Shown here: piece after piece, positions 15,581 to 40,022 of the stretch
Layout of the letters: each line of letters begins with the position of its first letter
How positions within the stretch are numbered: the stretch's first letter is position 1
Position numbers and translations under genes: made by a program
Source of the DNA: Candidatus Sumerlaeia bacterium
Lineage (GTDB): Bacteria > Sumerlaeota > Sumerlaeia > SLMS01 > JAHLLQ01
NCBI GenBank assembly: GCA_019634695.1
Contig: JAHCAW010000004.1
Span: 64,831 to 128,830, forward strand
Reading direction: 5' to 3'
DNA: 64,000 nt
The notes under the pieces: model-generated
What the model was told of the DNA's origin: nothing
Database searches by the model: none
Seen by the model: the letters and a program-made list of their open reading frames with translations, nothing else

Positions 15581-16072
15581 GTGAAACGCTGGGCGCTGAT
15601 CGCAGTCTTTCTTGGGATCTCCTTCGGGGTGGCGGGGGGGCTGGGGCTCTACACGTTCTACTACGCCGAGGGCGCCTCGTACCTCTCCAACGACCCGGCA
15701 GCCTGCATGAACTGCCACGTCATGCGCGAGCAGTTCGACGGTTGGACCAAGTCGAGCCACAAGCACGTCGCCTCCTGCAACGACTGCCACACGCCGCATG
15801 ACTTCTTCGGCAAGTACATGACGAAGGCGATCAACGGCTACTATCACTCGCTGGCGTTCACGACCGGCAACTTCCACGAGCCGATCCGCATCAACGCCCG
15901 CAACCTGCGCGTGACCGAGAGCACCTGCCGCAGTTGCCACGCCGACATCGTCAACGCCATCGACGCGCATCCCCTGATCCCCGCCGAACCCACCGCCGCG
16001 GCCGCCGACCCGGCCGCCTGGCAAAGCATCTCCTGCGTGCGCTGCCACGCCTCGGTCGGACACCTGCACTGA
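15581..16072 (+). CDS. nrfH: NrfH tetraheme cytochrome c quinol dehydrogenase (NapC/NirT family)
   Basis: N-terminal TM helix plus four CxxCH motifs (CMNCHVM, CNDCH, CRSCH, CVRCH). The first is in the CxxCHxM context typical of NrfH. The gene is immediately upstream of nrfA. Start is GTG 15581. Confidence 0.85.
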   Translation: MKRWALIAVFLGISFGVAGGLGLYTFYYAEGASYLSNDPAACMNCHVMREQFDGWTKSSHKHVASCNDCHTPHDFFGKYMTKAINGYYHSLAFTTGNFHEPIRINARNLRVTESTCRSCHADIVNAIDAHPLIPAEPTAAAADPAAWQSISCVRCHASVGHLH

Positions 16073-16088
16073 CGAGGAAAGGAACCCC

Positions 16089-17513
16089 GTGATGGAAACC
16101 CCCGCACCCCGCAAGGAACGTCGTCGCCTGGTCATGCTGTTCGTCGGCACCGCCGGCGCCACGGCGCTCGTCACGGCCCTGATCGCCGCCCTGCTCCTGA
16201 CGATCTTCGAGCACAAGCAGGAGGAGAAGACGCTGTTCTTCCGCGTGGTCGAGATCGACGACGAAACCTACGACCCGGCGATCTGGGCGAAGAACTTCCC
16301 CCAGCAGTACGACTCCTACATGCGCACGGTTGACATGGAGCGCACCCGCTACGGCGGCAGCGAGGCGATCCCGCGCGAGCCCGACGACGCCGACCCCCGC
16401 AAGTTCGTCGCCTACTCCAAGCTCGTCGAGGACCCGCGCTTGGTCACGATGTGGGCCGGCTATCCCTTCGCCCACGACTTCCGCGAGGAACGTGGCCACG
16501 CCTACATGCTCGAGGACCAGTCCTTCACCAAGCGCCACGAGGCCGCGCCGCAGCCCGGCGCCTGCATCAACTGCCATTCCTCCGCCTACGAGGCCTACAA
16601 GACATTGGGCAACGGCGACATCGTCGCGGGCTTCCACAAGCTCAATGCCCTGCCCTACCCCGAGGCCCGCGCCCACGTCTCGCATCCGGTCGCCTGCATC
16701 GACTGCCACGACCCCAAGACCATGCAACTGCGCATCACCCGCCCCGCCTTCATGGAAGGCATCAAGCTCGTCAAGGCCGCCGAAGGCATCGAGAACTACG
16801 ACGTCAACCTGATGGCCACCCGCCAGGAGATGCGCTCGTTCGTCTGCGGCCAGTGCCACGTCGAGTACTACTTCAAGGGCGCCGAGAAGACGCTCACCTA
16901 TCCGTGGCACAAGGGCCTGCGCGGCGACGACATTCTGGCGTACTTCGACGAGGTGGGCTTCAAGGACTGGACGCACGCCAAGACCGGCGCGCCGATGCTC
17001 AAGGCCCAGCACCCCGAGTTCGAGATGTGGAACCAGGGCGTGCACTCCAAGGCCGGCGTCTCGTGCGCCGACTGCCACATGCCCTACGAGCGCGTCGGCG
17101 CCATGAAGGTCAGCAGCCACCACGTGCGCAGCCCACTGCTCAACATCGCGTCGTCCTGCCAAACCTGCCACCGCGTGCCCGAGGAGGAGTTGCTCAACCG
17201 AGTCCACGCAATCCAGGACCGGCACTACGAGTTGCGCAACATCGCCATGGATGCGCTGATGGACCTTGTCGGCGCGATCGTCGAGGCACAGGAGGCCGGC
17301 GCCTCGCCCGACGAGATGGCCGCCGCGTGCGACTTCCAGCGCAAGGCGACCTTCCTGCTCGACTTCGCCGAGGCCGAGAACTCGATGGGCTTCCATGCGC
17401 CGCAGGAGGGCGCCCGCATTCTGGGCAAGTCGCTCGACTACGCGCGCCAGGGCTTCAAGTCCGTCAGCGAATTCTGGCGCGAACGCCAGACCGCCGTCGC
17501 GGCCGGCAACTGA
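16089..17513 (+). CDS. nrfA: Pentaheme cytochrome c nitrite reductase NrfA (ammonia-forming)
   Basis: Five heme motifs: CINCH, CIDCH, CGQCH, CADCH, CQTCH. The NrfA signature LKAQHPEFEMWNQGVHSKAGVSCADCHMP closely matches enterobacterial NrfA. There is an N-terminal anchor/signal. The start is GTG 16089 or ATG 16092. Confidence 0.9.
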   Translation: MMETPAPRKERRRLVMLFVGTAGATALVTALIAALLLTIFEHKQEEKTLFFRVVEIDDETYDPAIWAKNFPQQYDSYMRTVDMERTRYGGSEAIPREPDDADPRKFVAYSKLVEDPRLVTMWAGYPFAHDFREERGHAYMLEDQSFTKRHEAAPQPGACINCHSSAYEAYKTLGNGDIVAGFHKLNALPYPEARAHVSHPVACIDCHDPKTMQLRITRPAFMEGIKLVKAAEGIENYDVNLMATRQEMRSFVCGQCHVEYYFKGAEKTLTYPWHKGLRGDDILAYFDEVGFKDWTHAKTGAPMLKAQHPEFEMWNQGVHSKAGVSCADCHMPYERVGAMKVSSHHVRSPLLNIASSCQTCHRVPEEELLNRVHAIQDRHYELRNIAMDALMDLVGAIVEAQEAGASPDEMAAACDFQRKATFLLDFAEAENSMGFHAPQEGARILGKSLDYARQGFKSVSEFWRERQTAVAAGN

Positions 17514-17702
17514 ACCGATCCGCGCGCGGCCAGCAACTACGGCATCTCTCGGAAACTCGTGGCCACCCCACCGCCTGCGCGTTCGAGGCGGCCGCACAGA
17601 ACCTCACGACGCGGTATGGGTCATATAGGACTCATGCGTCCTATCGATGCGCTTCTCGGCATTTCGTCGTCGGCCACAAGAGACTGCAAGACGCTGTAAC
17701 GA

Positions 17703-19148
17703 CTAACCGCCCCGCTTCCACTTCGTCCCCGCGGGCGAGTCCTCGAGCACGATCCCCATGCCCGACAGCCGATTGCGGATGTCGTCGGCGAGCTCGAACA
17801 TCTTCGCCCTGCGGGCCTTGGCGCGCACGTCGATGAGCAACTCGACGAGTTGGCCCGAGATGTCCGAGAGTCCAGCCTCCTCGGCCGGCTCGAGGTTGGC
17901 CGTCGTGCCGAGGATGCCGCGGAAGAGATCGAGCAGCGCGGCGAGCGCCTCGAGTTCCCCCCGATCGCCGGCGCCGCGCTCGACCGCCGTGCGCACCGTG
18001 TTCAAGTCCGTCACCAGATCGAACAGGGAGGCGAGTGCCTGCGCGGTGTTGAAGTCGTCGTTCATCGCCTCGGCGAAGCGGGCCTCGAGTTCGCGGGCGC
18101 GGGCGGAGTGCTTCCAGGCGTCCGCCGCCGGCTCCGCACCGAGCACCCGGGCCGCCTCGCGCCGCGCCTCCGCATAGCGCCGTGTCGCCTTGCGCGCCGC
18201 CTCCAGGTTCTCCTGCGTGAAGTCCAGCTCGCGACGGTACGAGGCCGACACGAGGAAGTGCCTCAGCGTCAGCGCGTCGTAGAGCGCCAGCAGCGCGTCG
18301 ATCGTCTTGAAGTTGCCGAGCGACTTCGACATCTTCTCGCCGTCGATGTTCAGGAAGCCGTTGTGAATCCAATAGCGCGCGAAGGGCCGGCCGGTGGCCG
18401 CCTCGCTTTGCGCGATCTCGTTCTCGTGGTGCGGGAACTGCAAGTCCACGCCGCCGCTGTGGATGTCGATCGTCTCGGCATGGTGGCACTTCATCGCCAT
18501 GCAGGAGCACTCAAGGTGCCATCCCGGGCGGCCCTTGCCCCAGGGCGAATCCCATGCCGGCTCGCCCGGCTTGGCCGCCTTCCACAAGCAGAAGTCCAGC
18601 GCGTTGCGCTTCAGGCGCTGCTGCTCCTCGTCGACGCGTTCGCCCTGGCGCATCTCGTCGATGTTCTTGCGCGACAGCTTGCCGTAGTCGGCGAACGAGC
18701 GCACCTCGAACCAGACCGAGCCATCCTCGGAGGCGTAGGCATGGCCGCCGGCGATCAGGCGTTCGACGAGGGCGATCATCGGCTCCACGTACTGGGTGGC
18801 GCGGGGGTGCTCGTCGGCCGGCCGCACGCCCAGCAGCGCGATGTGCTCGAAGAACAGCTTCGTGTACTTCTCGGCCAACTGACCCGGGGGGATGCCCTCC
18901 TCGGCCGCCCGCGCGATGATCTTGTCGTCCACGTCCGTGATGTTCTGGACGAAGTGGACCGTATAGCCCAGATGCTCGAGCCAGCGCCGCATCACGTCCA
19001 CGACGACGAAGTTGCGGGCGTTGCCGATGTGGAACGGGCCATAGACCGTCGGGCCGCAGTTGTAGAAGCTGACCCGTCGCCCGTCCGGATCCAGGGGCAC
19101 GAAGTCGTCCTTGCGGCGGGTGAGCGAGTTGAAGATGCGGAGAGTCAT
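17703..19148 (-). CDS. cysS: Cysteine--tRNA ligase
   Basis: Class I aaRS motifs HIGNAR and KMSKSLGN. The sequence is CysS-like end to end (FYNCGPTVYGPFHIGN..., WHLECS). Confidence 0.95.
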   Translation of the reverse strand: MTLRIFNSLTRRKDDFVPLDPDGRRVSFYNCGPTVYGPFHIGNARNFVVVDVMRRWLEHLGYTVHFVQNITDVDDKIIARAAEEGIPPGQLAEKYTKLFFEHIALLGVRPADEHPRATQYVEPMIALVERLIAGGHAYASEDGSVWFEVRSFADYGKLSRKNIDEMRQGERVDEEQQRLKRNALDFCLWKAAKPGEPAWDSPWGKGRPGWHLECSCMAMKCHHAETIDIHSGGVDLQFPHHENEIAQSEAATGRPFARYWIHNGFLNIDGEKMSKSLGNFKTIDALLALYDALTLRHFLVSASYRRELDFTQENLEAARKATRRYAEARREAARVLGAEPAADAWKHSARARELEARFAEAMNDDFNTAQALASLFDLVTDLNTVRTAVERGAGDRGELEALAALLDLFRGILGTTANLEPAEEAGLSDISGQLVELLIDVRAKARRAKMFELADDIRNRLSGMGIVLEDSPAGTKWKRGG

Positions 19149-19264
19149 TGCCCTGCGGGCTCCGGGGGAGTCATGAGTGCGCCCAACGGCGGCAGGCTAT
19201 GCCCCGCCCCGCGCGCCGGTGGCAACCGGCGAATCGGGCCTCGATGCCCGGCAGAGGCAACGCG

Positions 19265-21196
19265 ATGGAACCTCCGGTCCACGAATGGCTGGTCACCGAC
19301 GGTCGAGGGGGCTTCGCCTGTGGTTGCTGGGATGACCACATCCGGCGGCGCTGGCACGGACTGTGGGTTGCCCGCCGGCCACCGCGCGACCGCGTGCGCC
19401 TGCTGGCAGGATTCGATCAGCACTTCATCGTCAACGGGCAGCGCATCTCCCCCTGGCCGGTCTGGACCGGCAGCGCCTGGTCTGCCGCGAACGGGATTCC
19501 CGACGGCTCGGGCATCGAGGACTACGGGCAGAGGTTTCAGGCTCTCGCCTCCCCGTTCGCCGGACTGAGGTTTCCCATTCGGGTTGTGTGCAAGCCCGGG
19601 GTTGCGGTGCAGATGGTCTTCAATCCCCTGCTGCCCTTCGCTCCGGAGCCGAAGCAGCTCCATGCGCACCTGATCGAGTTGGGAACCCATCAGGGGTTGA
19701 CGCTCTACATCCATTGCACGCGGGCGATGGCCCTGCGAGGCGAAGCCGTGCGACTGGACAACGTGGACCTGGAGCTCGAGCACGAGTGCGAGGCCGTGTG
19801 GACCGAGACGCTGTGGCGGGCACCCGATATCGCCATCGATCTCGAAGGCGACTGCCAATTCATGCTCGTCGCCTCCACGACGGCGGACCCGGCGTGCCTG
19901 TCGGACGCCCCCTCAAGAAGCGACGATGGATGGAATAGGATCGATGGACCCGTGCCTCCGGGCGATGCGCGCGAAGACCCCGCTGAGATCGACGCCTACT
20001 TGGAAGACCTGAAGGACTTCCTGCGTCATGGAATCATGCTGGCGGGGTTCGCGCGTCAGTTCCTGGTGCGGTCGTCGTCGGGTCGTCCCACGATCATCGC
20101 CGGCTATCCGTGGTTCACCGACTGGGGCCGCGACACGATGATCGCACTGCCGGGTCTGCTGCTCGCCACGGGGAACAAGGCGCTCGCGGCCGAGGTGCTC
20201 GACCACTTCCTCGATCACCTCGACGAGGGACTCATCCCGAACCTCTTCCCCGAGGACGACACCGCACCGCTCTACAACACCATCGACGCCACCTTGTGGA
20301 TGATCGACCGCGCGTTCCTCATCGATGCGGAGTTCGACGGGCAGTTCGTGCACGGCGAGCGCTGGGAGAAGCTCAAGTCCGTCATCGCCCACCACCGCGC
20401 GGGCACGAAGCACGACATTCGACTGGACGACGACGGACTGCTGCGCGGCGGCACCGAGGGCAGCCAGCTCACCTGGATGGACGTGAAGATCGACGGCCAT
20501 GTGCCGACGCCGCGCCACGGCAAGCCGATCGAGATTCAGGGCCTGTGGTTCAACGCGCTCAAGCTGATGGCGGATCGCGCCGCAGCCTTGGGCGAGAAAC
20601 CCCTCGCACTCGAGTACGGCACGTTGGCGAAGCGCTGCGAGGCCGCCGTCGCCGCGCGCTTTTTCGCCGGCCGTCGCGCCTGGGCCGCCGACGTCGTGGA
20701 CCGCGATGGCCCCGGCACGGCCGACTGGGCCATTCGTCCCAACATGATCATTCCGTTCGGACTCGCCCACAATGTGCTGCCCGCCGAACGCCGGGTCGAC
20801 ATCCTCAAGACGGCGACAACGCACCTGCTGACACCCTGCGGCCTGCGGACTCTCTCCAAGAAGGACCCGGCCTACATCAGCATCTACCGCGGCGATGTCC
20901 GTCAGCGCGACCGCGCCTATCATCAGGGCACCGTCTGGCCCTGGCTCCTCGCCCCATTCGTCAAGGGACTGGTCGCGCATCGCGAACAGCTTCCAATCGC
21001 GCCCCGCAAGCTCAGGTCGATTCGGCGGAACCTCGAACGGCTCCTCGGTGCGCCGAGCTGTGAGTGTCAGCTCAATGAAATCTACGACGGCGATCCGCCG
21101 CACACGCCCCGCGGCTGCTTCGCGCAGGCATGGTCGCTCGCCGCCGGCATCGAGGCCCTGGAAATCCTCGACGCACTCGCTCAGAACGAAGAATAG
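19265..21196 (+). CDS. Glycogen debranching enzyme / amylo-alpha-1,6-glucosidase family (GDE_N + GDE_C)
   Basis: N-terminal EWLVTDGRGGFA and the GDE_C signature GYPWFTDWGRDTMIALPGLLLATG. The start was chosen at ATG 19265; the track start is 19148. Confidence 0.8.
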   Translation: MEPPVHEWLVTDGRGGFACGCWDDHIRRRWHGLWVARRPPRDRVRLLAGFDQHFIVNGQRISPWPVWTGSAWSAANGIPDGSGIEDYGQRFQALASPFAGLRFPIRVVCKPGVAVQMVFNPLLPFAPEPKQLHAHLIELGTHQGLTLYIHCTRAMALRGEAVRLDNVDLELEHECEAVWTETLWRAPDIAIDLEGDCQFMLVASTTADPACLSDAPSRSDDGWNRIDGPVPPGDAREDPAEIDAYLEDLKDFLRHGIMLAGFARQFLVRSSSGRPTIIAGYPWFTDWGRDTMIALPGLLLATGNKALAAEVLDHFLDHLDEGLIPNLFPEDDTAPLYNTIDATLWMIDRAFLIDAEFDGQFVHGERWEKLKSVIAHHRAGTKHDIRLDDDGLLRGGTEGSQLTWMDVKIDGHVPTPRHGKPIEIQGLWFNALKLMADRAAALGEKPLALEYGTLAKRCEAAVAARFFAGRRAWAADVVDRDGPGTADWAIRPNMIIPFGLAHNVLPAERRVDILKTATTHLLTPCGLRTLSKKDPAYISIYRGDVRQRDRAYHQGTVWPWLLAPFVKGLVAHREQLPIAPRKLRSIRRNLERLLGAPSCECQLNEIYDGDPPHTPRGCFAQAWSLAAGIEALEILDALAQNEE

Positions 21197-21210
21197 AAGG
21201 GGGACCACGC

Positions 21211-21531
21211 ATGCAGGAAATCACACTCCTATACATCCCCTGTCCCTCCGAAGAGGAGGCATGCCGCATCGCACGCCACCTGCTCGACGCGCGCCTTGTC
21301 GCCTGCGCGAACTGGTTCCCGATCCGCAGCATGTACTGGTGGGAGGCAGCACTCGCCGAGGAGGGCGAGGTCGTGCTGCTTGCCAAGACGCTCCCCGCCA
21401 AGGCCGACGCCGTCGAAGCCGCAATCCGCGCCGTCCATCCCTACCAAGTGCCCTGCATCGCCCGTGTCGCAGCCTGCGTGAATGAAGAGTACGGCCGGTG
21501 GATGGAGAAGGAAGTAGATATTAGCCTTTAG
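21211..21531 (+). CDS. cutA: Divalent-cation tolerance protein CutA
   Basis: The 106-aa product contains CANWFPIRSMYWWEAALAEEGEVVLLAKT...HPYQVPCI, the typical CutA1 fold signature. ATG 21211 follows AGGGGGA. Confidence 0.85.
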   Translation: MQEITLLYIPCPSEEEACRIARHLLDARLVACANWFPIRSMYWWEAALAEEGEVVLLAKTLPAKADAVEAAIRAVHPYQVPCIARVAACVNEEYGRWMEKEVDISL

Positions 21532-21685
21532 TTGTTGGCTGTTGGAACGTGCCCTTCTGGAGCGTAGAGCAGCCGGCGGAACAAGCCTCTCCTCGGTCAA
21601 GGCACGAACCACAACCGCATCAGCTCAACAGCCAACAACTAACAACCAACAACTAGCCTCCAACGACTAACATTTTCTCCCCCCC
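21529..21685 (+). repeat. Heptad-periodic inverted-repeat intergenic element A (GT-rich arm, ~80-nt spacer, CA-rich arm abutting the next start codon)
   Basis: TAGTTGTTGGCTGTTG (21529-21544) is a perfect 16/16 complement of CAACAGCCAACAACTA (21626-21641). The CA arm continues as 7-nt units to about 21670. There is an inner stem CGTGCCCTT / AAGGCACG. The local GC content drops relative to the flanks. Confidence 0.6.
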
Positions 21686-22657
21686 ATGCTCCCCTCCTGC
21701 TCCATCGTCATCGTCACCTGGAACCGCCGCAAGGAGCTCGAGCCCTTGCTGGAGTCCGTCTTTGCACAGACAATCGCGGACCGGCTCGAGGTGATCGTTG
21801 TGGACAACGCCTCGACGGACGGGACGGTTGCGTGGCTGCGCGAGGCCTATGCCGGCCGCGTGCGCGTGTTTGCCTACGCGGAGAATCGCGGCGCGTGCGA
21901 CGGGCGCAACGCCGGCATTCGCGCCGCATCCGCGCCGTACGTCTGCTTCCTCGACTCCGACGCGGAGATACTCTCGCCCGACGCCATCGAGCGCTGCCTC
22001 GAGCACCTCGATGCCAATCCCGGCACCGACGCCGTCGCCGCCCCGATCTGGTTCGATCGCGCGAAGACCAATCCCTTCCTGCTCGGCGGTTATGTTACGC
22101 CCGACGGGCACTATCATGGAATCAGTTGCCGGTCGCGCGACGACGAACCCATGCTGCTCTCGACCTGTTTCGCCGTCTGGCGCAAGGCCACCCTGAAGGA
22201 GGTTCGCGGCTTCGATCCGTGGTACTTCTGGGGCATCGAGGACATGGACCTCGGCCTGCGGACCTATCATCGCCGCAAGCGCCACGATCCCGGCGCGCAA
22301 CCCTTCCGCATCGTGCGCGGCGTCGATGTGCTGCACGAGATGTCCACCGCCGGGCGCCACCACGACCCGCGCAGCTTCGAGCAGACTTTCGTGCGCTACG
22401 AGCGCCAGCGCCTCTACATGGTGCTCTCGTACGGCGGCCTCGGCCAATTCCTGCGCGTCGCCGCGCGTGGCCCATTCCGCATCCGCCGCATGGCCGACGC
22501 ATGGGAGCACGTGCTGACGCGGCGCCAGCGCTGGCAGGCCGCCGTCTGGTTTCCGCTGCTGCGCCTGCTGGCCTTGCCGAAGAACCTGCTCGACGTGCGG
22601 CGCAACCACCTCGCGCGCACGACGATGCCGGTCGAGGTGACGGATCAGAGCGCCTGA
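21686..22657 (+). CDS. Family 2 glycosyltransferase
   Basis: Classic GT2 N-terminus: CSIVIVTWNRRKELEPLLESV...VIVVDNASTDGT...ENRGACDGRNAGI...FLDSDAEI. Confidence 0.85.
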   Translation: MLPSCSIVIVTWNRRKELEPLLESVFAQTIADRLEVIVVDNASTDGTVAWLREAYAGRVRVFAYAENRGACDGRNAGIRAASAPYVCFLDSDAEILSPDAIERCLEHLDANPGTDAVAAPIWFDRAKTNPFLLGGYVTPDGHYHGISCRSRDDEPMLLSTCFAVWRKATLKEVRGFDPWYFWGIEDMDLGLRTYHRRKRHDPGAQPFRIVRGVDVLHEMSTAGRHHDPRSFEQTFVRYERQRLYMVLSYGGLGQFLRVAARGPFRIRRMADAWEHVLTRRQRWQAAVWFPLLRLLALPKNLLDVRRNHLARTTMPVEVTDQSA

Positions 22658-23787
22658 CGCACCATGCCGGCGATGCCGCGCCAAGAGTACTCGACCGCCT
22701 TGCCGTGAAACGAGCCGTGCGTGCAGTGGCAGCAGCGAATCTGCCCGCGGCGCTCCCATGCGGCTTCGCTTTGCCACAGCGCCGAGAAGTCGAAGTCGAA
22801 CTGCGCCAGGTTCGCGAACGGCTTGGTGAACTCGCAGTGCGCCACGTCGCCGTTGGAGTAGATCACGCCGACGGCCGAACCGGCCGTGACGCAGGGAAAC
22901 TGCGGCTTGCCGGTGGCGATCATGCGCAGCGTCGCGATCGTGTGCAGGCGATAGGCGTCGGCACGATACGGCGAGCCCTCATTGATGCGCTCAAGGTCCG
23001 CGACGATCTTCGGGAAGTCCTCGACCGGCGGCAGGTCCATGTTGCTCTTCGGGGCAACGTTCGCCTCGCGGATCTCGGGCAGGATGTTCCAGGCCGTGCG
23101 GTTCACGTCGCGCATGATCTCGAAGCCCTGATAGACGGCGGGGGAGACCTCGCGGCGCAGCAGGTCGTTGAGCTCGACCAGTTCGCGGTAGTTCATGCTG
23201 TTGATGATCGTCAGCACGTTGACGGCGACGGCCGGGTACTTCTCCTGCAGCGGCCAGAGCTTGCGCAGCGACTCGATCACTTTGTCGAAGTTGCCCGGCA
23301 CGCCGCGGATGCGGTCGTGCGTCTCGCGCAGGCCATCGAGCGATATCTGGAAGTCGATGCCGACGTCCGGGAACTCCGCCTTGAAGTCCTCGGCCATGCG
23401 GACCAGTTTGTCGGGGAAGAGCGCGTTGGTGTTGATGCGCAGGACGCTTGCCTTGCGGCGCTTGGCGAAGGCGGCGAGCACCTCGGGCAGGTCGCGGCGC
23501 AGGGTCGGCTCGCCGCCGGTCAGGATCAGGATGTCGAACGGCGGCACCGTCTCCGCCAGCCGGTCCACCTGCTCGAGCGTCAGTTCCGGGATGCCGATGT
23601 TGAGGTCCTGCCAGCAGAAGCAATGGTCGCACTTGGCATTGCAGCGCATCGTGATGAAGAGAAACAGGTTGGCGAGCGGGTAGAGCCCCGTGCGCCGGCG
23701 CGTGCGCTTGTTGGCGACGAGCCGTCGGGCGGTGTTGGCGATGATCTGTCTGTCGATTGCTCGCACGGCGCGCCTCACGCGGGCCAT
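22645..23787 (-). CDS. Radical SAM enzyme with a C-terminal SPASM/twitch-like Cys-rich domain
   Basis: CxxxCxxC motif (CNAKCDHC) in LFLFITMRCNAKCDHCF, followed by ILTGGEPTL. C-terminal Cys cluster: FPCVTAGSAV...AHCEF...IRCCHCTHGSF. Confidence 0.8.
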   Translation of the reverse strand: MARVRRAVRAIDRQIIANTARRLVANKRTRRRTGLYPLANLFLFITMRCNAKCDHCFCWQDLNIGIPELTLEQVDRLAETVPPFDILILTGGEPTLRRDLPEVLAAFAKRRKASVLRINTNALFPDKLVRMAEDFKAEFPDVGIDFQISLDGLRETHDRIRGVPGNFDKVIESLRKLWPLQEKYPAVAVNVLTIINSMNYRELVELNDLLRREVSPAVYQGFEIMRDVNRTAWNILPEIREANVAPKSNMDLPPVEDFPKIVADLERINEGSPYRADAYRLHTIATLRMIATGKPQFPCVTAGSAVGVIYSNGDVAHCEFTKPFANLAQFDFDFSALWQSEAAWERRGQIRCCHCTHGSFHGKAVEYSWRGIAGMVRQAL

Positions 23788-23872
23788 TTCGGCCGGTCAG
23801 TTGGCAGGAAGCACAAGGAGTGCCGCCCCTGCAAGGAGGGAAGCGTGCGGGCGCGCCCTGGAGTTGGCCGGG

Positions 23873-26260
23873 TCAGAATGTCAACTCGCCGTTGAGGAAG
23901 GCCATCGAGCGGGCCATGATCTCGGTGCGATGGGCCTCGTCCTGGATGGTTTCGAACGGGAAGGCAAGGTAGACGAGGCGCCATGGGCCGGCGTAGCGGA
24001 TGGCAGCGGCCTCGCCGGGGGCGCCGTTCGGATAGGTCAGGAACGCTTGGGCGCCGCCCATGGGACGCAGGACATCGGCGGTCGTGACGGGATAGGTGCG
24101 GCCGGTGCCGTCGTCGAAGGCGAGCGTGTCGACGCGCAGCAGCAGGCCGTCGCGAGCGTTTGCCGCCTGATTGATGCGCGCGGCGGGCCGGATGCACTCG
24201 ACCTTGAGCATCTCGCGCAGGAAGTCGCCGGCCAGATCGCGGCTGGCAAAGCCCAAGTCCGAGGCCAGGTTCGAGCCCGACACGAACAGGTTGCCGCCCG
24301 ACTCCAGGTACTCGCGCACCAGACGCCGTTCGAAACCGTCGAACGTCGAGCCCTCGCCCTCGTTGCCCAGCATCCACACGACGATGCGGTAGTCGCGCAG
24401 GCGCACGTCGCCGGCGATCACCGCCTCGTTGCTCGTCGAGTCGAAGTGCCAGCCCGTGGCGTGCAGCGCACTGCCGTGCTGCACCACGTAGTCGAACGTG
24501 TTCATCTTCGCGACGATCGTGCGTTCGAACTCGTTCCCGGGGAACGTCGTCGAGTCGACGAGGTTGAGGCCGCGGTCGAGCCGGTCGAAGCCGTTGACGA
24601 CGAGCACCTCGGGCTGAAGCGTGCGCTCGGGTGCGCGAACGGCCAGCGTCTCGGTCGGCATCGATTCGCCGCCCTCGTTGACGGCCACAACGCGGAAGTA
24701 CTCGACCTGTCCGGGCAGCACACCCTCGAGCACCGTGCTGGTCGTATCCACCACCGTGCCGTTGTCGAACCCGTAGCCATTGCGCGAGCGATACACGCGA
24801 TAGCTCGTCGCGGCGTCGCCCAGCACGCCGTCGCCCTTGTCGAACGCCGGCGGGTTCCACGCCACCTCGATGCGGTTCATGCCCGTCTTGCGCACGCGCA
24901 GGTGCGTGGGCGGCTCGGGCAGGCGCGTCGCGATGTCGAAGCCGTCGACCTCTTCATGGAAGTACTTCAGGATGCCATGGTAGACGGCGCGGGCGGAGAT
25001 GCGCCGGAAGTCCGGATCCAGAATGTGTCCCGCGTCGGCGGGATTGTCGTGATAGCCGTTCTCGACGAGCACCGCCGGCATCTTCGCGTTGGCCGCCGGA
25101 TTCGTCTCGCCCAGCCAGCGCGTGATCAGGCCGACGTCCTCCCAGCGCGCATCGTAGGCCGTGCGCACATGGTGCAGCACCTCGTCGTGGACGATGCGGC
25201 CGAGCACGTCGCCGCCCGGATAGCCCGTGAAGTCCCACGGCGGGCCCCACGCATTCGGTCCGTAGATGTAGGTCGACAGCCCGCTCATCGTGTGCGTCTC
25301 GCTGCCGTTGGTGTGCCACGACACGTAGATCGAGCGATTCTTCTCCCACGGCTCGGCTTCCCACTCGGCATAGCGCGGCATCGCCCGCACCTGGTTCCAG
25401 GTGCGCAGGTCGTCCTCGGCCACCGGCATGCCCATGAACGGGGCGTAGTACAGGCCGGACTCCTCCCAGCGCGGCTTGCCGCTCAGGGTGCCGGCGACGC
25501 GCGTGTCGCCCATGCCGCCGCCAAAGCGCACCGCACCCAGCGCCACATGCTCGCCGGCGCGACTGCTCGAGTTGTCCAGCACCACGGCGCCGCGCAGCGC
25601 GTCGCGTCCCGCCTCGAAGTGATACGTGCCCAGGTACTTCCAGGTGCTGTGGTCGCGGTTCAGGTCCTGCCGCCATTCGGTCGAGCCACCGCTGTGGCGG
25701 ATCGTCAGGCGCGCGTCGGTGCTCGTGCGTCCGCGCCGCACCGGCGAGTACCACGCGTAGACCGCGTAGTAGCCGTCGGCGGGGATGCGCGGCACATAGG
25801 CGACACGCGCGTTCGGCTCGCCCCGCACCGTCGAGGCGACCAGTTGCGTGCCCCCCCAGACGTTTTCGTTGTCCTCGCGCTTCCACGATCCCTGCGTGAC
25901 CGGCGATCCGCTCTCGGCGGTCACCACGGCCATTTGCGTCTGCATGTCGCGCTCGCGCGTCGTCACGACGTTGGCGCCAGCGTTCCACAGGTACGGCAGC
26001 AGAAACTGGTTCACCGCCTCGGCGTTGCTCAGGTCCTCGACGATGCGATTGAGCGGACCCCGCTGGGTGGTCCAGCGGCCGTTGGTGTGGTGCCAGCCGT
26101 GGCCGGCACTGACGAAGATCGTCGCGCCGGTCAGGGCGCCCACCGGCTGGGCCTCGCCCCGCTCGGGGGGCTTGGTCTTCGAGGCCGGGGCCGCGGTCGC
26201 CAGCACGGCGGCCAGCCCGGTTCCCGCAACGGCTCGTCCGATTGTCCGAAGTCTGCTCAT
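23873..26260 (-). CDS. Exported multidomain protein, paralog 1: split Amidase_3-like (MurNAc-L-Ala amidase) domain with a golvesin-like insertion, an FN3 domain and an uncharacterised C-terminal domain
   Basis: Signal peptide present. Amidase_3-like elements: SAGHGW, NAEAVNQ, NVVTTRERD, IYVSWHTN, VLVENGYHDN. Golvesin-like pattern: PADGYYAVYAWY...WKYLGTYHF...GAVRF. FN3-like segment: PTHLRVRKTGMNRIEVAWNPP...YRVYRS. The start was trimmed to ATG 26260 (MSRLRTIG); track ORF 23873..27232 reads through into the paralog. Confidence 0.7.
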   Translation of the reverse strand: MSRLRTIGRAVAGTGLAAVLATAAPASKTKPPERGEAQPVGALTGATIFVSAGHGWHHTNGRWTTQRGPLNRIVEDLSNAEAVNQFLLPYLWNAGANVVTTRERDMQTQMAVVTAESGSPVTQGSWKREDNENVWGGTQLVASTVRGEPNARVAYVPRIPADGYYAVYAWYSPVRRGRTSTDARLTIRHSGGSTEWRQDLNRDHSTWKYLGTYHFEAGRDALRGAVVLDNSSSRAGEHVALGAVRFGGGMGDTRVAGTLSGKPRWEESGLYYAPFMGMPVAEDDLRTWNQVRAMPRYAEWEAEPWEKNRSIYVSWHTNGSETHTMSGLSTYIYGPNAWGPPWDFTGYPGGDVLGRIVHDEVLHHVRTAYDARWEDVGLITRWLGETNPAANAKMPAVLVENGYHDNPADAGHILDPDFRRISARAVYHGILKYFHEEVDGFDIATRLPEPPTHLRVRKTGMNRIEVAWNPPAFDKGDGVLGDAATSYRVYRSRNGYGFDNGTVVDTTSTVLEGVLPGQVEYFRVVAVNEGGESMPTETLAVRAPERTLQPEVLVVNGFDRLDRGLNLVDSTTFPGNEFERTIVAKMNTFDYVVQHGSALHATGWHFDSTSNEAVIAGDVRLRDYRIVVWMLGNEGEGSTFDGFERRLVREYLESGGNLFVSGSNLASDLGFASRDLAGDFLREMLKVECIRPAARINQAANARDGLLLRVDTLAFDDGTGRTYPVTTADVLRPMGGAQAFLTYPNGAPGEAAAIRYAGPWRLVYLAFPFETIQDEAHRTEIMARSMAFLNGELTF

Positions 26261-28644
26261 GGGCGCACGTCCTGCGTCAGGCGTTTGTCGCTCTGCAAGT
26301 CCAGAAAGCGCATGGCGTTGTTGACGACGGCACGCCGCGCCAACGGGTCCTCGATCGTCTCGATCGGAAAGCCCAGCACCACCAGGCGATGCGGATACTG
26401 GGTTTGCAGCGCGGCGACTCCCTTGCCGCCGGCGTAGTTCAACGCCGCGCGCGCCCCGCCCGTCGCCGCCAGAACGTCGGGCGTCTTCACCGGATAGACC
26501 GCCGCGTCGCCGCCGAAAGCGAATGGCGCAATGCCCTCGAAGATCGAGCCGGCCGCGGGCTCCGCCGTGCGCGTGCCCGAGTCGGTGGCGACGAAGCTGG
26601 CTTGCAGCACGCCGCGCAGGAAGCCGCTGTCGGCCCGCTCGAGGTCCGCCGCGATCTCCGAACCCGAGAGCAGCATCGTGCCCCCGCCGCCCAGGTACGA
26701 CCGCACCAGCTCGCGCTCGACGGCGTCCAGCGTCCCCGCCTCGCCACCCTGTTGTCCCAGCATCCACACCACCACGTCGTAGCCGGCCAGTGCCACCGCT
26801 CCATCGCGCACGGCCGCACGGCCCACCGACTCGAACGGATATCCCGCTGCCGCCAACCCGTCGGCGTGCTGGATCACGTAGTCGAACGTGTTCATCTTCG
26901 CGAGAATGCCGCGCTCGACACCGGCCTCGGTGACCAGGTTGAGCCCGCGGTCCAGGCGGTCGAAGCCGTTGACCACCAGCACGCGGGGCTTCTGGCCCGC
27001 GAGGTGGCGCACGGCCAGCGTCTCGGTCGGCAGCGACTCGCCGCCTGCGTTCGTTGCCGCCACGCGCACGAACAGCGTTTCGCCCGAGGGCACCGGTCCC
27101 AGCGTCGTCGTTGTGCCCTCGACGGCCATGCCGTTGTCGAAGCCCTTGCCGTCGCGCGAGCGATACAGACGATAGCCGGTCGCCGCATGGCCGAGCTGCG
27201 CGCCGTCGGTCTCGAACGGCGGTGGATTCCATGCCACTGTCACGCGTCCGCCGGTCGTCGCCAGCACCCGCAGGTGCGTTGGCGGCTCCGGCAGGAACGT
27301 CGCGTTGTCGAAGCCGGGCATCTGCTCGGCATAGTGATGGACGATGCCTTGATATACCGCCCGCGCCACCAGTTGACGGAAGCGCGGATCGAGGATGTAG
27401 CCCGCGTCCTCGACGTTGTCATGGAAGCCCATCTCGTACAGCGCGGCCGGCATCTTCGTGTTGTTGCGCGGATTCGTCTCGCCCAGCCAACGGCAGACCA
27501 CGTTGCCATTGCGCCACTGCGGGTCCCAGTCGGCGCGCACGGCGCCCAGGATTCGATTGTGCACCGCCACGCCCAGCACGTCGCCGCCCGGGATGCCCGA
27601 GAACTCCTCCAGCCCGCCCCAGGAATTCGGTCCATACACGAAGCTGAACAGCCCGCGTGCCGTCCCGTTGTGCGCGTTCGTGTGCCACGACACGTAGACC
27701 GAGCGATCCTTCTCCCACGGCTCGCACTCCCACGAGGCATAGAACGGCATCGCGTTGACGGAGTTGAGCGGGCGCGAGTCGGCCGCGGCATTGTAGCCCA
27801 TGAACGGCGCGTAATACAGACCGGACTCTTCCCAGCGCGGGTAGCCACTCTGGCCCATGCCGCCGCCGAAGCGGATGGCGTCGATCGTGATGCGGTCGCC
27901 GTCGCGGCCGGTGGCGTTCGTCACCAGCACGGAGCCCTCGGCGGCGCGCGCTCCCTTGCGGAAGTGGTACGTTCCGAGATACTTCCAGGTCTCGGAGTCG
28001 CGATTCAGGTCCTGCTGCCAGATGGTCGTGCCGCCGGTGTGCTGGATCGCGAACTCGGCCGAGGTGGTGGTGCGGCCGGTGCGCGAGGCATTGTACCAGG
28101 CGTAGACGGCGTAGTGGCCATCCTCGGGGATGTCGGGGGTGAAGGTGGCCTTGGCGACATCGCCATTCTGACCGGGCTTGAGCCGGGCGGCATCGATCGT
28201 GCGGGCTACGCGGTGGCGCCCGTCGCGGGCGGCCGGGTGGGCCTCGTCGGTCCAGGGGCCGGACTCGGCGTAGCCAGTACTGCCCGGCGCCGCCTCGACG
28301 ATCACCATGTTCGTCTGCATGTCGCGCTCGCGCGTCGTCACGACGTTGGCGCCCGCGTTCCACAGGTAGGGGAGCAGATACTGCAGCACCGATTCGGCGT
28401 TGCTGTGATCCTCGATGACGCCGTGGCTGTTGCCGCGCTGCGTGACCCAGCGGCCCAGCCGCTCGTTCCACAGCCAGCCATGGCCCGGGCTGACGAAGAC
28501 GGTCGCGCCCGAGAGCGCCCCGGTGGGCTGTGCGCGCCGCACGTCCTGCGGCGCCGGCTCCGTGGCCGGCGCGCCCACAGGCACCGCCAGCATCAGGCCA
28601 GCCAACATGCCGACGGCCACCGCCGGCGTCGCCTGTCGTTTCAT
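26257..28644 (-). CDS. Exported multidomain protein, paralog 2, with the same architecture as 23873..26260
   Basis: It aligns with paralog 1 from end to end (GHGW, NAESVLQYLLPYLWNAGANVVTTRERDMQT, VYVSWHTN, PEDGHYAVYAWY, PTHLRVLATTGGRVTVAWNPP). Its stop overlaps the paralog 1 start (ATGA at 26257-26260). Confidence 0.7.
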   Translation of the reverse strand: MKRQATPAVAVGMLAGLMLAVPVGAPATEPAPQDVRRAQPTGALSGATVFVSPGHGWLWNERLGRWVTQRGNSHGVIEDHSNAESVLQYLLPYLWNAGANVVTTRERDMQTNMVIVEAAPGSTGYAESGPWTDEAHPAARDGRHRVARTIDAARLKPGQNGDVAKATFTPDIPEDGHYAVYAWYNASRTGRTTTSAEFAIQHTGGTTIWQQDLNRDSETWKYLGTYHFRKGARAAEGSVLVTNATGRDGDRITIDAIRFGGGMGQSGYPRWEESGLYYAPFMGYNAAADSRPLNSVNAMPFYASWECEPWEKDRSVYVSWHTNAHNGTARGLFSFVYGPNSWGGLEEFSGIPGGDVLGVAVHNRILGAVRADWDPQWRNGNVVCRWLGETNPRNNTKMPAALYEMGFHDNVEDAGYILDPRFRQLVARAVYQGIVHHYAEQMPGFDNATFLPEPPTHLRVLATTGGRVTVAWNPPPFETDGAQLGHAATGYRLYRSRDGKGFDNGMAVEGTTTTLGPVPSGETLFVRVAATNAGGESLPTETLAVRHLAGQKPRVLVVNGFDRLDRGLNLVTEAGVERGILAKMNTFDYVIQHADGLAAAGYPFESVGRAAVRDGAVALAGYDVVVWMLGQQGGEAGTLDAVERELVRSYLGGGGTMLLSGSEIAADLERADSGFLRGVLQASFVATDSGTRTAEPAAGSIFEGIAPFAFGGDAAVYPVKTPDVLAATGGARAALNYAGGKGVAALQTQYPHRLVVLGFPIETIEDPLARRAVVNNAMRFLDLQSDKRLTQDVRP

Positions 28645-28695
28645 CCTGTCACCTCATCGCTCGGGAGTCGTCGTGCCGGATTGCCGCCGGGGCCT

Positions 28696-28992
28696 TCAGG
28701 GATAGGCCACGACGACGCGGTTGTTCGCGTCGTAGACGACGCTGCGCACGACCGTCCCGTACTGGTATTGGGCGTAGGTGTTGCCGCCCTTGGCGGGCGC
28801 GATCGCCGTCGGCATTCCCAGCACCGACTCGACCCGCTTGCGCGACTGCCCGGGGCTGACCGTGTAGGCCGCCTTCACATCCACCGGGATGTCCTCGGCC
28901 TTCAGGCGCGAGCCGGCACAGCCCGCCAGCACTCCGGCGACGAGCATCGCCGCCAGTCCTGCCGCACATCGCTTCGAGACAGACGAAAACAT
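28696..28992 (-). CDS. Small lipoprotein (SmpA/OmlA/BamE-like size and pattern)
   Basis: The 98-aa product has a lipobox LAGC (MLVAGVLAGCAG) and leads the minus-strand amidase operon. The start was trimmed to ATG 28992 from track ORF 28696..29487. Confidence 0.55.
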   Translation of the reverse strand: MFSSVSKRCAAGLAAMLVAGVLAGCAGSRLKAEDIPVDVKAAYTVSPGQSRKRVESVLGMPTAIAPAKGGNTYAQYQYGTVVRSVVYDANNRVVVAYP

Positions 28993-29335
28993 CGCTAACC
29001 CTCGTGTTGCCAGTCTCTCGCAGCGCTTGCCGCGGGAACCCCAAGGGCGGGCGCGGGGGCTGCAAGTCGGCACGATACCGCCAGCATCGGCGCACGCCGG
29101 CAGGTGGTCGAGCGGAATTGGTTGCGACCTCCGGGTGCGCTTGCACCTCGAAAGCCCTTGCGTCGGACAGCCTGATGCCGGCACGGTGTGGGCAATCGTT
29201 GAGTGGAAGTGTCGCTGATCCCCTTGTCCGGCCCTCCGGACCCCATGGGGCTGTAAGGCCCCCCAAGGTTCCTGCTTCGGACAATCAGGAGAAGTTTCGC
29301 ACCACCACCCATTTTCTGACGGAGGATCCCACGTC

Positions 29336-30073
29336 ATGCGTCGTCTCAAAGGTTTCACCCTGATCGAACTGCTCATCGTGGTGGCCATCATCGCCATCCT
29401 GGCCGCCATCGCGGTGCCCAACTTCCTTGAGGCCCAGGTACGCTCGAAGGTCTCGCGCGCCAAGTCCGACATGCGCACAGTGGCCACGGCCCTCGAGGCC
29501 TACACGGTCGACTACAACAAGCCCCCTTCCATTGTCGCCCGCCATGCCAGCATCACCAACTCGCCGCTGACGCCCAACAGCGTCCTCAACGGCCCCAGCC
29601 TCTATTATCCTCAGCAGACCCCGGGCGTTAGCTCGCGCCTGCTCGTCCTGACCACCCCCGTTTCCTACATCACCAGCGTCGGCCGCGACCCGTTCATCAA
29701 CCCGGCCGTCCGCTTCGCCATCTCCTGCAACGGCACCGCCCCCCTTCCCGAGTACGACACCTACGACTACGTCGACTCGTTCACCATCAACCCCAATGGC
29801 CCGTACCCGACCTTCAACACCGGCGTGAACGCCAACCGCGCGGCCGGCCTCTCCTCCGGTTCCGCCTGGCACCTCGTCAGTGCCGGCCCGGACCTTGAGA
29901 ACTGCTTCGGTGGTGGCCACCAGGGCCAGACCGCCTTCCATGAGGGCGGCGCCGACTACGATCCGACCAACGGCAGCGTTTCGCGCGGCGACATCGTCCG
30001 CGTCTCGTCCGCCCGCGGCGAGGTCTATCCGAACTTCGCCCCGGCCCACAACCGCGCCGCTCGCGGCAACTGA
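29336..30073 (+). CDS. GspG-like pseudopilin with a prepilin-type N-terminal cleavage/methylation domain
   Basis: MRRLKG/FTLIELLIVVAIIAILAAIAVPNFLEAQVRSKVSRAKSDMRTVATALEAY. No other secretion-system genes are adjacent. Confidence 0.85.
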   Translation: MRRLKGFTLIELLIVVAIIAILAAIAVPNFLEAQVRSKVSRAKSDMRTVATALEAYTVDYNKPPSIVARHASITNSPLTPNSVLNGPSLYYPQQTPGVSSRLLVLTTPVSYITSVGRDPFINPAVRFAISCNGTAPLPEYDTYDYVDSFTINPNGPYPTFNTGVNANRAAGLSSGSAWHLVSAGPDLENCFGGGHQGQTAFHEGGADYDPTNGSVSRGDIVRVSSARGEVYPNFAPAHNRAARGN

Positions 30074-30272
30074 TCGTCCCGCGGCAACGCCGCGACTTGA
30101 CGCACCCTTACACCCCCGGCCCGCAGCCCCAACGCTGCGGGCCGGTTTGCGTCTGGCGGCCAGTCCCCCAACGTCGCAAATCCACCTCTTTTGAGTTGCA
30201 CCGCTTGGGCTTCCCGGCTCGTTGTATTATGTCTGGAAATACTTGGGAATCCTCCTCATGGAGAGTGCGACG

Positions 30273-31496
30273 ATGGGCGAACGGTGCTGGATCGGAAGAG
30301 TCGGGACTATCGTGGCGCTGGCCCTGTGGGCGATCGGCACGGCGGCGTGCGCCGGAGGCGCAGGGCGACAGGCGAGTGAGGTCGCTCCCGGCGCCGGGCA
30401 CCTGATCATCATCGGCGGGGCGCTCAGCGCGGAGAACGAGGAGATCTACGGCCGCATGGTCCAGTTGGCCGGCGATGGCCCGATCGGCATCGTGCCAACG
30501 GCCAGCGGCGTGCCCGACGAATCGCTGACCGGCGCCCTCGCGCGATTCGACCGCTGGGGAGGCGCGGGGCGCTCGGTGGCGATCGACATCCGGCACGACC
30601 AACCCGAGCAGGCCGCCAATCCCGAGTGGGCCGCCCGAATCGCCACCTGCCGCGGCATCTTCTTCACCGGCGGCGTGCAGACCCGCATCCTGAACGCATT
30701 CCGACCCGAGGCGGGCGACACAGTGTGCCACCACGCCGTGCAGGGCGTGCTGGCGGCGGGGGGCTTCGTGGCCGGTTCCTCGGCGGGCGCGGCGATGATG
30801 TCGGACCCGATGATCGCCGGCGGCACAAGTCGCGCCGCGCTGCGCTTTGGCGTCGTGGACGCGGACGCCGCGGATCGCGGAGTCCGCATCGGGCGCGGCA
30901 TGGGGTACTTCCCGTACGGACTCACCGATCAGCACTTCCTTGCCCGCGGCCGCCTTGGACGCCTGATCGTCGCACTTGAGCAGACCGGCCTCGATTTCGG
31001 CTATGGCGTCGAGGAGAACCGCGCCATCCACGCCGACCTTGCACGCCACCGGATCGAAGCGATCGGCGGCCCGCATGCGGTGCTCATGGTGGACGTCTCG
31101 CGCATGCAGCGCCAGGGCGCCAGCCTGCACAACGTGCGGCTGGCGCTGCTGAGTTCGGGTGACGCGGTGAACGCGCTGGACGGTCGCGTCGTCCCGGCGC
31201 CCGGCCGGATGCCCGCAACGATCCCCGTGGAGGCAGGCGCGTCGGAGCTGCGGCACGACAACGCTTGGGGGCGCAATGTCATCCCCGAGCTGATGGCCGA
31301 CCTTGTCCTCGGGCCCGCACCACGTGCCGTCGCACTCGATCCCGACTTCGAGATCGTCCTCTCAACCGACGCCGAGACCCGGCGGTTCGACGATCCCGAG
31401 CCGGGCTCGCGTACCCCCACGATCGTCAACTTGCGACTCGACATTCGGCCGCGCGCGACAGGCACCGCGAGCGTCGACGGGAGCCGGACGCCATGA
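30273..31496 (+). CDS. Exported cyanophycinase (peptidase S51), CphE-like
   Basis: HLIIIGGA, FFTGGVQ, the catalytic-Ser motif GSSAGAAMMS, and LTDQHFLARGRLGRLIVAL. The N-terminus looks like a signal or lipoprotein sequence (IVALALWAIGTAAC). ATG 30273 follows GGAGAG; the track start is 30222. Confidence 0.8.
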   Translation: MGERCWIGRVGTIVALALWAIGTAACAGGAGRQASEVAPGAGHLIIIGGALSAENEEIYGRMVQLAGDGPIGIVPTASGVPDESLTGALARFDRWGGAGRSVAIDIRHDQPEQAANPEWAARIATCRGIFFTGGVQTRILNAFRPEAGDTVCHHAVQGVLAAGGFVAGSSAGAAMMSDPMIAGGTSRAALRFGVVDADAADRGVRIGRGMGYFPYGLTDQHFLARGRLGRLIVALEQTGLDFGYGVEENRAIHADLARHRIEAIGGPHAVLMVDVSRMQRQGASLHNVRLALLSSGDAVNALDGRVVPAPGRMPATIPVEAGASELRHDNAWGRNVIPELMADLVLGPAPRAVALDPDFEIVLSTDAETRRFDDPEPGSRTPTIVNLRLDIRPRATGTASVDGSRTP

Positions 31497-39708: not shown

Positions 39709-40022
39709 TGAGGGATGACTCCAGAGAAGTCAGGGGTGCCGGTGAGGGGCGGCGCTCCTGCCGAAAAGCCGGACGAACTCGAGGCTGCACCCATTCATAG
39801 CGAGAGAGTTGCAATCCTCCTAGCGCTCGTGCTTCGGTCATAAAAAATCTTCCTTGGTTTGCGACTTCACCTCCCTGCCCCGGGCGGACGATTTTCGCCC
39901 CCCGGCATCGCGTTCCTTCTTGCATCGATGCCACGCCGCCGCCAACACTCGCAAGTTGCCTCCCCACTTCCCTGATCGGATGGTTGCCCGGCGTGTTTTC
40001 GATCAATGCAACGAATTCTTCG

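Follow-up and report, generated by a model that had tools for sequence, protein, structure and literature searches.

We examined a group of neighboring genes in a 64,000-nucleotide stretch of DNA from a Candidatus Sumerlaeia bacterium (contig JAHCAW010000004.1, positions 64,831 to 128,830; the window, with positions counted from its first letter). Four minus-strand genes encode a small lipoprotein, two large exported proteins (exoproteins A and B) with a split amidase domain, and a radical S-adenosylmethionine (rSAM) enzyme, and a gene for a family 2 glycosyltransferase (GT2) converges on the last of them (Table 1). An earlier note on this DNA had read the four as one operon, possibly an envelope-glycan or peptidoglycan remodeling system with an rSAM-dependent maturation step. 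The evidence assembled here points elsewhere. It is likely, in our judgment, that two independent modules, one of lipoprotein and amidases and one of rSAM and GT2, became neighbors through a lineage-specific rearrangement and have the separate functions proposed below.

The layout itself had been described correctly: four co-oriented, tightly spaced minus-strand genes, with GT2 converging on the rSAM gene. The lipoprotein gene and the gene for A are separated by 51 nucleotides (nt), rather than the 52 counted before; the 4-nt overlap between A and B, in which the start of B lies on the stop of A, and the 85 nt between B and rSAM were both right. The 3′ ends of the GT2 and rSAM genes overlap by 13 nt. 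G+C at third codon positions (GC3) is 0.79-0.92 in the four minus-strand open reading frames (ORFs), as expected for coding sequence, and the window as a whole is about 68% G+C. A scan of positions 21500-29500 gave no sigma-70-like promoter or intrinsic terminator beyond chance expectation, and is blind to promoters that are not of the sigma-70 type; the 85-nt gap before the rSAM gene folds no better than shuffled sequence (z = 0.27). Across the whole window (1-64000) no Rfam family attained its gathering score, and a repeat search recovered only the tandem paralogy of A and B, at a spacing of about 2372 nt. A four-gene operon would thus be predicted from spacing, with no promoter or terminator signal either way.

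Table 1. Genes and protein domains at the locus, with window positions (aa, amino acids).
Feature	Position	Strand	Description
Small lipoprotein	28696-28992	-	98 aa; ORF with lipobox LAG/C
Exoprotein A	26257-28644	-	795 aa; Sec signal peptide, split Amidase_3, FN3, GATase1-like C-terminal domain
Golvesin_C/CBM6-like beta-sandwich of A	27868-28275	-	PF25275, 55.3 bits; lies between the second (E78) and third (H321) Zn ligands
FN3 module of A	27010-27294	-	fn3, 20.4 bits (below cutoff of 25); Ig_RIMBP2, 23.7
C-terminal domain of A, ~250 aa	26260-27012	-	Class-I glutamine-amidotransferase/ThuA-like fold, no catalytic Cys
Exoprotein B	23873-26260	-	795 aa; paralog of A, same architecture
rSAM enzyme	22645-23787	-	380 aa, cytoplasmic; PF04055
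GT2 glycosyltransferase	21686-22657	+	323 aa, no transmembrane segment; PF00535 at 102 bits

Linkage of the rSAM gene and the amidase genes

Linkage was searched from both sides with tblastn. On the rSAM side, the 10-kb flanks of 84 loci with an rSAM homolog were searched using four queries (A, B, the lipoprotein and the GT2). Outside locus L085, not one of the 84 carried a homolog of an amidase or of the lipoprotein within 10 kb of the rSAM gene, and this includes 10 other Sumerlaeota loci. On the amidase side, the rSAM and GT2 were used as queries against 30 metagenome loci with amidase homologs plus L087, L088 and L119-121; outside L085/L086, neither was found near the amidases (0 of 36 amidase loci). 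Among 85 loci with rSAM homologs and 37 with amidase homologs in all, the arrangement of the window is repeated solely in L085, which is 92-95% identical and was reached from the amidase side.

The next-closest genome (L005) has an rSAM 81% identical to that of the window. The block running from rSAM through GT2, CutA, GDE and cysS is syntenic in L005 and L085, and in L005 it is inverted relative to the genes on the NrfA side and has no amidase (L005 6949-17850, set against window 15581-23787). The inverted, amidase-free block implies that the junction between rSAM and amidase genes in the window is a rearrangement boundary, that of an inversion. L005 also has an extra repeat protein of about 530 residues, with 'ISPDG' repeats, between rSAM and GT2.

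We also looked in the exoproteins for what an rSAM maturase might act on, a search for conserved Cys/Ser motifs that had been suggested beforehand. No conserved Cys was present anywhere in the exoprotein family alignment, nor did the exoproteins have a C/S-x-P/A-x-R motif as an rSAM target. Maturation of the anSME type was rejected on these two grounds and because no NCBIfam maturase model was reached.

The combination of rSAM and amidases is therefore a juxtaposition of neighbors and not one system. Maturation of the amidases by the rSAM enzyme does not survive: the genes are not co-conserved, an outcome named in advance as one that would speak against it. The remodeling proposal as a whole fared unevenly; its reading of A and B as amidases of the envelope or of peptidoglycan holds up on residues, on fold and on a carbohydrate-binding-module (CBM)-like insertion, and its rSAM step is lost for lack of co-conservation.

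Exoproteins A and B and their lipoprotein

Both exoproteins match Amidase_3 (PF01520) in Pfam through the C-terminal half of the domain (41.6 and 40.8 bits; cutoff, 27). When the insertion (residues ~113-300) was spliced out, the scores rose to 52.1 and 53.7 bits (E 1e-13 and 3.5e-14), and the match covered model positions 1-172/173 of 174. Given this end-to-end match, the catalytic domain is truly split by the insertion, as had been suspected, and the amidase motifs quoted in support of that suspicion are all present. By alignment to LytH and CwlV, the Zn ligands are H55, E78 and H321 and the catalytic Glu is E404 (numbering of A); they align with the motifs PGHG, E, SxH and ExG and are invariant in an alignment of 44 homologs that includes both paralogs. 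No ligand is missing, so the amidase reading survives this check and the Zn site is intact, although the second ligand is the invariant E78 of 'IED' and not, as first proposed, the Glu of 'NAE'.

The predicted structure agrees with this assignment. An AlphaFold2 (AF2) model of A (pLDDT 91, pTM 0.92) gave four groups of Foldseek matches in the PDB: peptidoglycan amidases, CBM6 and xanthan-binding modules, FN3 domains, and GATase1-like proteins. The amidases (4rn7, 4lq6, 7agm, 7rag, 5emi, 8c0j and 7tj4; target-normalized TM-score [TMt] 0.46-0.62, probability 1.0) comprise C. difficile 4rn7, Rv3717/Ami1, CwlD, AmiC2, AmiB and LytH, and include the CwlD-GerS complex (7rag) and LytH-ActH (7tj4). 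Everything about Amidase_3 that could be tested in A and B agrees with membership; hydrolysis is predicted, and the architecture is unlike that of characterized amidases. Since the amidase residues are intact, the fold is that of peptidoglycan amidases, and the insertion is CBM-like, a role on peptidoglycan or envelope glycan is the best-supported function that can be predicted for A and B.

The insertion matches Golvesin_C (PF25275) at 55.3 and 56.4 bits in the two exoproteins (cutoff, 31.6). A golvesin-like insertion had thus been rightly recognized, with a length of about 190 residues instead of the ~240 first given. In Foldseek its best structural match is a module of xanthan lyase 6f2p (24% identity, E 9e-9), followed by the CBM6 of agarase (2cdo/2cdp) and the xanthan-binding module 7ehg. 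It shares the beta-sandwich of CBM6/CBM35 modules and Golvesin_C, and carbohydrate binding is predicted; in A and B, however, the sandwich is inserted within the enzyme domain and not appended to it. The golvesin literature, in the portion available to us, is almost all about Dictyostelium Golgi markers. Elsewhere in the window (47984-49486, plus strand), a 500-residue protein joins a CE4 polysaccharide deacetylase domain (PF01522) to a C-terminal Golvesin_C (PF25275, 73.8 bits), and is a second envelope-glycan enzyme in the window that shares the beta-sandwich module; it has an ortholog in L085 (1-1301).

An FN3 module after the amidase domain had also been foreseen and is there in both exoproteins, matched by Pfam fn3 in each (in A below the cutoff), with FN3 structures found for this region of A (TMt 0.6-0.75). 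The C-terminal domain that follows was described earlier as about 300 uncharacterized residues. The domain is real, but it is closer to 250 residues and its fold can be recognized. Modeled alone with AF2, the last 251 residues of A (pLDDT 86) matched ThuA-like 4jqs/4pxy, 3fij, 1o1y, 6vtv and a domain of 7vkz, an Ignavibacterium beta-1,2-glucosyltransferase (E 1e-6 to 1e-5), as well as the GIFT domain of IFT52 (query-normalized TM-score [TMq] ~0.5-0.59, probability 1.0). This is the fold of class-I glutamine amidotransferases and ThuA, found also in the GH42 trimerization domain and in the GIFT domains of IFT52 and GldG. By profile the likeness is faint: the ThuA hidden Markov model (HMM) scores 16.2 bits in B (cutoff, 33.4) and does not match A, and PF06283 is a precomputed annotation on homolog P0208. 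With no conserved Cys, the Cys-His-Glu triad of the amidotransferases is absent. The domain has its own invariant polar set (R19, D21, N25, R34, N41, Y78, S116 and Y173 in domain numbering), which suggests a binding surface, and it is probably noncatalytic. S116 was considered as the nucleophile-elbow Ser of S51-like peptidases; it lies two residues before the strand-helix junction, the junction residue varies, and no catalytic role is claimed. The domain is widespread, with about 2000 clusters at 50% identity in many architectures.

A and B are about 52% identical to each other. L087 holds separate orthologs of each (63% identical for A, 70% for B), and the duplication is therefore old. The four-part architecture returned 524 matches at E <= 1e-5, most of them from Sumerlaeota and others from Wenzhouxiangella and Puniceicoccaceae, with several paralogs per Sumerlaeota genome (PWP23_704, _1343 and _1344 in one metagenome-assembled genome [MAG], for example) and with longer homologs that carry additional C-terminal modules. 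In source records these proteins are named only 'N-acetylmuramoyl-L-alanine amidase', 'golvesin C-terminal-like domain-containing protein' or 'hypothetical', and we know of no characterized member of the split-amidase/FN3/GATase1-like architecture.

A small ORF homologous to the lipoprotein lies directly upstream of an amidase gene in L085, L087, L119, L120 and L121, at spacings from a 4-nt overlap to 82 nt. The lipoprotein is thus a recurrent partner of the amidases, in five independent lineages. An HMM built from five of the homologs scores the lipoprotein ORFs at E 1e-30 to 1e-39. L087 keeps the order lipoprotein-A-B with the same 4-nt overlap (the lipoprotein is 66% identical there), followed by a convergent TIR gene. 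The family resembles BamE (SmpA_OmlA, PF04355) below threshold: the window protein scores 16.2 bits (cutoff, 23.2), and sub-threshold matches occur in five of six homologs, with a best E of 6.5e-4. When the lipoprotein was used as query in a homology search with a word prefilter, it retrieved no protein but itself, and profile and sequence searches of the PDB gave nothing meaningful for it.

With AmiA/B/C, CwlD, LytH, Rv3717/Ami1 and CwlV, the exoproteins share the fold, the His-Glu-His Zn site, the catalytic Glu and export; they are only 15-18% identical in sequence to amidases of solved structure. Amidases with partner proteins are known in GerS-CwlD, ActH-LytH and EnvC/NlpD-Ami, and A and B likewise have a partner protein encoded alongside, although theirs is a small BamE-like lipoprotein and not a LytM factor. 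They differ further in having the catalytic domain interrupted by the CBM6-like region and followed by FN3 and a GATase1/ThuA-like domain, and in having no AMIN, LysM or SPOR targeting domain by Pfam.

Several other genes lie near the module. A prepilin-type gene with an N-terminal methylation motif, T2SS-G-like, adjoins it in three loci (window 29336-30073, plus strand; L085 8572-9288; L087 8807-9418). It is divergent from the module in the window and in L085 and co-directional in L087, and its presence may reflect the abundance of such genes in the phylum; a second one lies at 39016-39708 (minus strand) of the window. On the plus strand are genes for an NrfA-type cytochrome c552 nitrite reductase (16089-17513), an Asparaginase_2 family protein (34323-35567) and an M14 carboxypeptidase-like protein (39984-41513), and a 424-residue ORF without a Pfam match (30222-31496).

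The rSAM enzyme and its glycosyltransferase neighbor

The identity of the rSAM enzyme as a member of its superfamily is clear. PF04055 scores 64.2 bits (cutoff, 29.5), and all 24 homologs compared share the Cys of its CX3CX2C cluster (C49, C53 and C56). The earlier assignment to the SPASM enzymes does not stand with it. The SPASM HMM (PF13186) falls below threshold at 14.6 bits (cutoff, 21.5), and exactly four C-terminal Cys are conserved in all 24 sequences (C299-x18-C318-x34-C353-x-C355), so that a twitch-like domain with a single auxiliary cluster fits the conserved pattern better than a full SPASM domain. The window enzyme shares a CX3CX2C core and a single C-terminal four-Cys auxiliary-cluster motif with the sugar-acting twitch enzymes (BtrN, BlsE), and the spacing of the motif is presumably BtrN-like. 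With the SPASM maturases (anSME, PqqE, MftC and the sactisynthases), the window enzyme has in common its rSAM core and, of the SPASM motif, the first half (C-x13-G-x4-C). Unlike them, it has only four of the seven C-terminal Cys that define SPASM and its two auxiliary clusters (CX9-15GX4C...CX2CX5CX3C...C). A look for a precursor peptide or a target motif gave neither, and the gene is not co-conserved with those of the exoproteins.

Attempts to place the enzyme in a named family were consistently negative. No NCBIfam model reached its cutoff among the matches listed (25 of 63), in which the best scored 74.7 against 425 and HpnJ did not figure. Sequence matches in the PDB were remote (SkfB, Tes, MoaA and BlsE, the last to 7vob at E 1.5e-5). 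The heme-pathway enzymes AhbC, AhbD and NirJ were rejected at 52.6-73.7 bits against cutoffs of 500-650, and HpnH, MoaA and Tes because the enzyme scores far below their cutoffs. Many homologs bear the JGI label 'Fe-coproporphyrin III synthase', which is probably a COG-level overannotation. The bacterial membrane-spanning-lipid synthase (Mss), a candidate suggested by a link to Acidobacteria, was set aside as well; the paper on it reports no mss homologs in Acidobacteria and no glycosyltransferase. Judged by these scores, the enzyme is a superfamily member outside every curated family checked. Orthologs 55-86% identical occur in Candidatus Sumerlaeota, with a second tier of homologs at 31-38% identity in Pyrinomonadaceae, Omnitrophota, the candidate phyla radiation (CPR) and DPANN.

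The gene has a recurrent neighbor of another kind. In 64 of 81 evaluable loci, a GT2 homolog or a GT21-type enzyme (PF13506) lies no more than 400 nt from the rSAM gene, and this adjacency spans about ten bacterial and archaeal phyla and three orientations. In other Sumerlaeota the rSAM-GT2 pair is found both convergent and co-directional. The roughly 50 Pyrinomonadaceae loci, including L003/L004 of Pyrinomonas methylaliphatogenes K22, keep a strict order of topoisomerase I, GT21, rSAM and atpZ/I/B/E. The pair occurs also in Omnitrophota, Gemmatimonadota, Nitrospirae, one gammaproteobacterium, three lineages of the CPR and four archaea of the DPANN group. It is co-directional in the DPANN, CPR, Omnitrophota, Nitrospirae and Gammaproteobacteria loci, where the stop codon of one gene often overlaps the start codon of the next. 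Transmembrane segments number about four in the GT21 partners, and the Sumerlaeota GT2 has none. In a MAG of Vicinamibacteria (L038 9655-11964, contig DATBIO010000149.1), one ORF of 769 residues comprises rSAM (55-368), GT2 (441-632) and two C-terminal hydrophobic segments, and looks like a Rosetta-stone-like fusion of the gene pair, seen on this one MAG contig. Ten loci have unrelated neighbors at the rSAM gene (L002, L008, L009, L027, L059, L062, L069, L080, L083 and L084). The link between rSAM and GT2 is thus strong, not universal, and the pair appears to be undescribed, on a non-exhaustive search of the literature.

In two DPANN loci (L011 1403-8642 and L013 419-7197), the pair lies within what by eye appears to be a surface-glycan cluster, in the order GT2, GT2, rSAM, a CDP-glycerol-transferase-like protein of about 640 residues, a second rSAM with a Cys-rich C terminus, and a NeuB-like gene of the sialic-acid-synthase type.

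Two proposed modules and the alternatives to them

For the first module (28992-23873), we propose an envelope system of a Sumerlaeota type, in which a BamE-like lipoprotein is followed by two old paralogous, Sec-exported Zn amidases. From their fold and residues, A and B would cut the amide bond between glycan strand and stem peptide of peptidoglycan or of a closely related glycopeptide. The CBM-like sandwich within the catalytic domain could hold or position the glycan, FN3 could serve as a spacer, and the GATase1-like domain could be a binding or oligomerization module. By analogy with GerS-CwlD, ActH-LytH and EnvC/NlpD-AmiABC, the lipoprotein might tether the amidases at the membrane or activate them.

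In the second module (23787-21686), gene linkage suggests that GT2 would add a sugar to an acceptor, either lipid or glycan, and that the twitch rSAM would alter that sugar, by oxidation, epimerization, dehydration or ring contraction, and would have no part in maturation of the amidases. The only precedents found for a head-group pathway that combines a glycosyltransferase with an rSAM enzyme are those described for calditol synthase (Cds) and for the ring contraction by HpnI/HpnJ (PMC13459092, PMC9385802). The rSAM of the window is likewise paired with a glycosyltransferase, a mechanistic analogy only; HpnJ belongs to another class, that of rSAM enzymes with a B12 domain. One can envision a widespread, undescribed pathway in which a lipid or glycan receives a hexose from a glycosyltransferase and a twitch rSAM then rearranges or oxidizes that hexose, for instance by a ring contraction like that of Cds or HpnJ, yielding a cyclitol-type head group. 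Such a pathway would extend through Sumerlaeota, Acidobacteriota, Omnitrophota, Gemmatimonadota, Nitrospirota, CPR and DPANN, with its two enzymes fused in one Vicinamibacteria MAG. We put this forward tentatively and regard it, in that full form, as rather unlikely.

Several observations weigh against the two-module interpretation or parts of it. The rSAM gene follows exoprotein B by only 85 nt, with no terminator detected between them; read-through co-transcription in this lineage, and hence a lineage-specific link, is possible. About 50 of the 64 adjacent cases of rSAM and glycosyltransferase come from Pyrinomonadaceae, are phylogenetically redundant, and have a GT21-type partner. Among the close Sumerlaeota orthologs of the rSAM, three of seven lineages (L002, L008 and L009) have no adjacent GT2. 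The substrate of the amidases is read from fold and residues alone. The BamE match of the lipoprotein stays below threshold, and by a local HMM no homolog of the lipoprotein was found beside the more distant amidase homologs, only near the closer ones.

On the amidase side, A and B might instead be secreted to scavenge or prey, removing peptides from the peptidoglycan of other organisms or from some other glycopeptide polymer, as in feeding on necromass. This is conceivable, although we think it on the unlikely side. The several paralogs per Sumerlaeota genome, the longer forms with additional C-terminal modules, the insertion resembling CBM6 and xanthan-binding modules, and the peptidase and asparaginase genes nearby would all suit such a life; the tight link to a membrane-anchoring lipoprotein, however, points to the cell's own envelope. 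The catalytic mechanism would be the one we favor, with a difference in physiological role only.

A second possibility is lineage-specific recruitment, in which the modules are independent by ancestry but the rSAM gene is read through from the amidase promoter in this species. Expression of rSAM would then be coupled to envelope remodeling, and the amidases could act on a glycan made by rSAM and GT2. The short gap lacks a terminator, an obvious promoter or a ribosome-binding site, and envelope glycoconjugates concern both modules. Yet GT2 is on the opposite strand and would not be co-transcribed, comparative support is absent, and the promoter scans would have missed promoters that are not of the sigma-70 type. 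We hold recruitment to be improbable.

We are as skeptical that the rSAM and GT2 genes are adjacent by chance, GT2 genes being abundant, with the rSAM acting alone in an unrelated cofactor or lipid pathway. The ten loci without an adjacent glycosyltransferase and the JGI label would be consistent with this, but not the recurrence of the pair in about ten phyla and three orientations, its frequent stop/start overlap or the fusion ORF of L038; the models for AhbD, AhbC and NirJ, at 52-74 bits against cutoffs of 500-650, speak against the label.

That the locus is one operon, whose rSAM matures or modifies both exoproteins or their substrate in remodeling of peptidoglycan or envelope glycan, seems to us very improbable: co-orientation, the 85-nt gap without a terminator-like site, the like arrangement of L085 and the existence of protein maturases among twitch/SPASM enzymes would accord with it, but L085 is near-identical to the window and so not independent evidence, linkage fails at all other rSAM and amidase loci, the junction is an inversion boundary, the exoproteins lack a conserved Cys or sulfatase-type motif, and no peptide-maturase model of NCBIfam was reached.

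Two independent modules, brought together in one lineage, therefore remain the reading we prefer. An rSAM step coupled to cell wall amidases is not upheld, which saves effort on a false lead. The lipoprotein and amidases might represent a novel type of regulated peptidoglycan amidase that carries its own glycan-binding insertion; the architecture is abundant, with hundreds of homologs, and uncharacterized, and it could reveal another route of targeting or control of peptidoglycan amidases in poorly studied phyla. The pair of rSAM and GT2 or GT21 is a well-defined candidate, open to experiment, for radical chemistry of a new sort on sugars or glycolipids, including in CPR and DPANN organisms with small genomes. 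Because Pyrinomonas methylaliphatogenes carries the GT21-rSAM pair and is cultured, it offers a tractable system for finding the function. If the proposed pathway is true, ring contraction like that of Cds and HpnJ would reach well past the Sulfolobales and the hopanoid producers.

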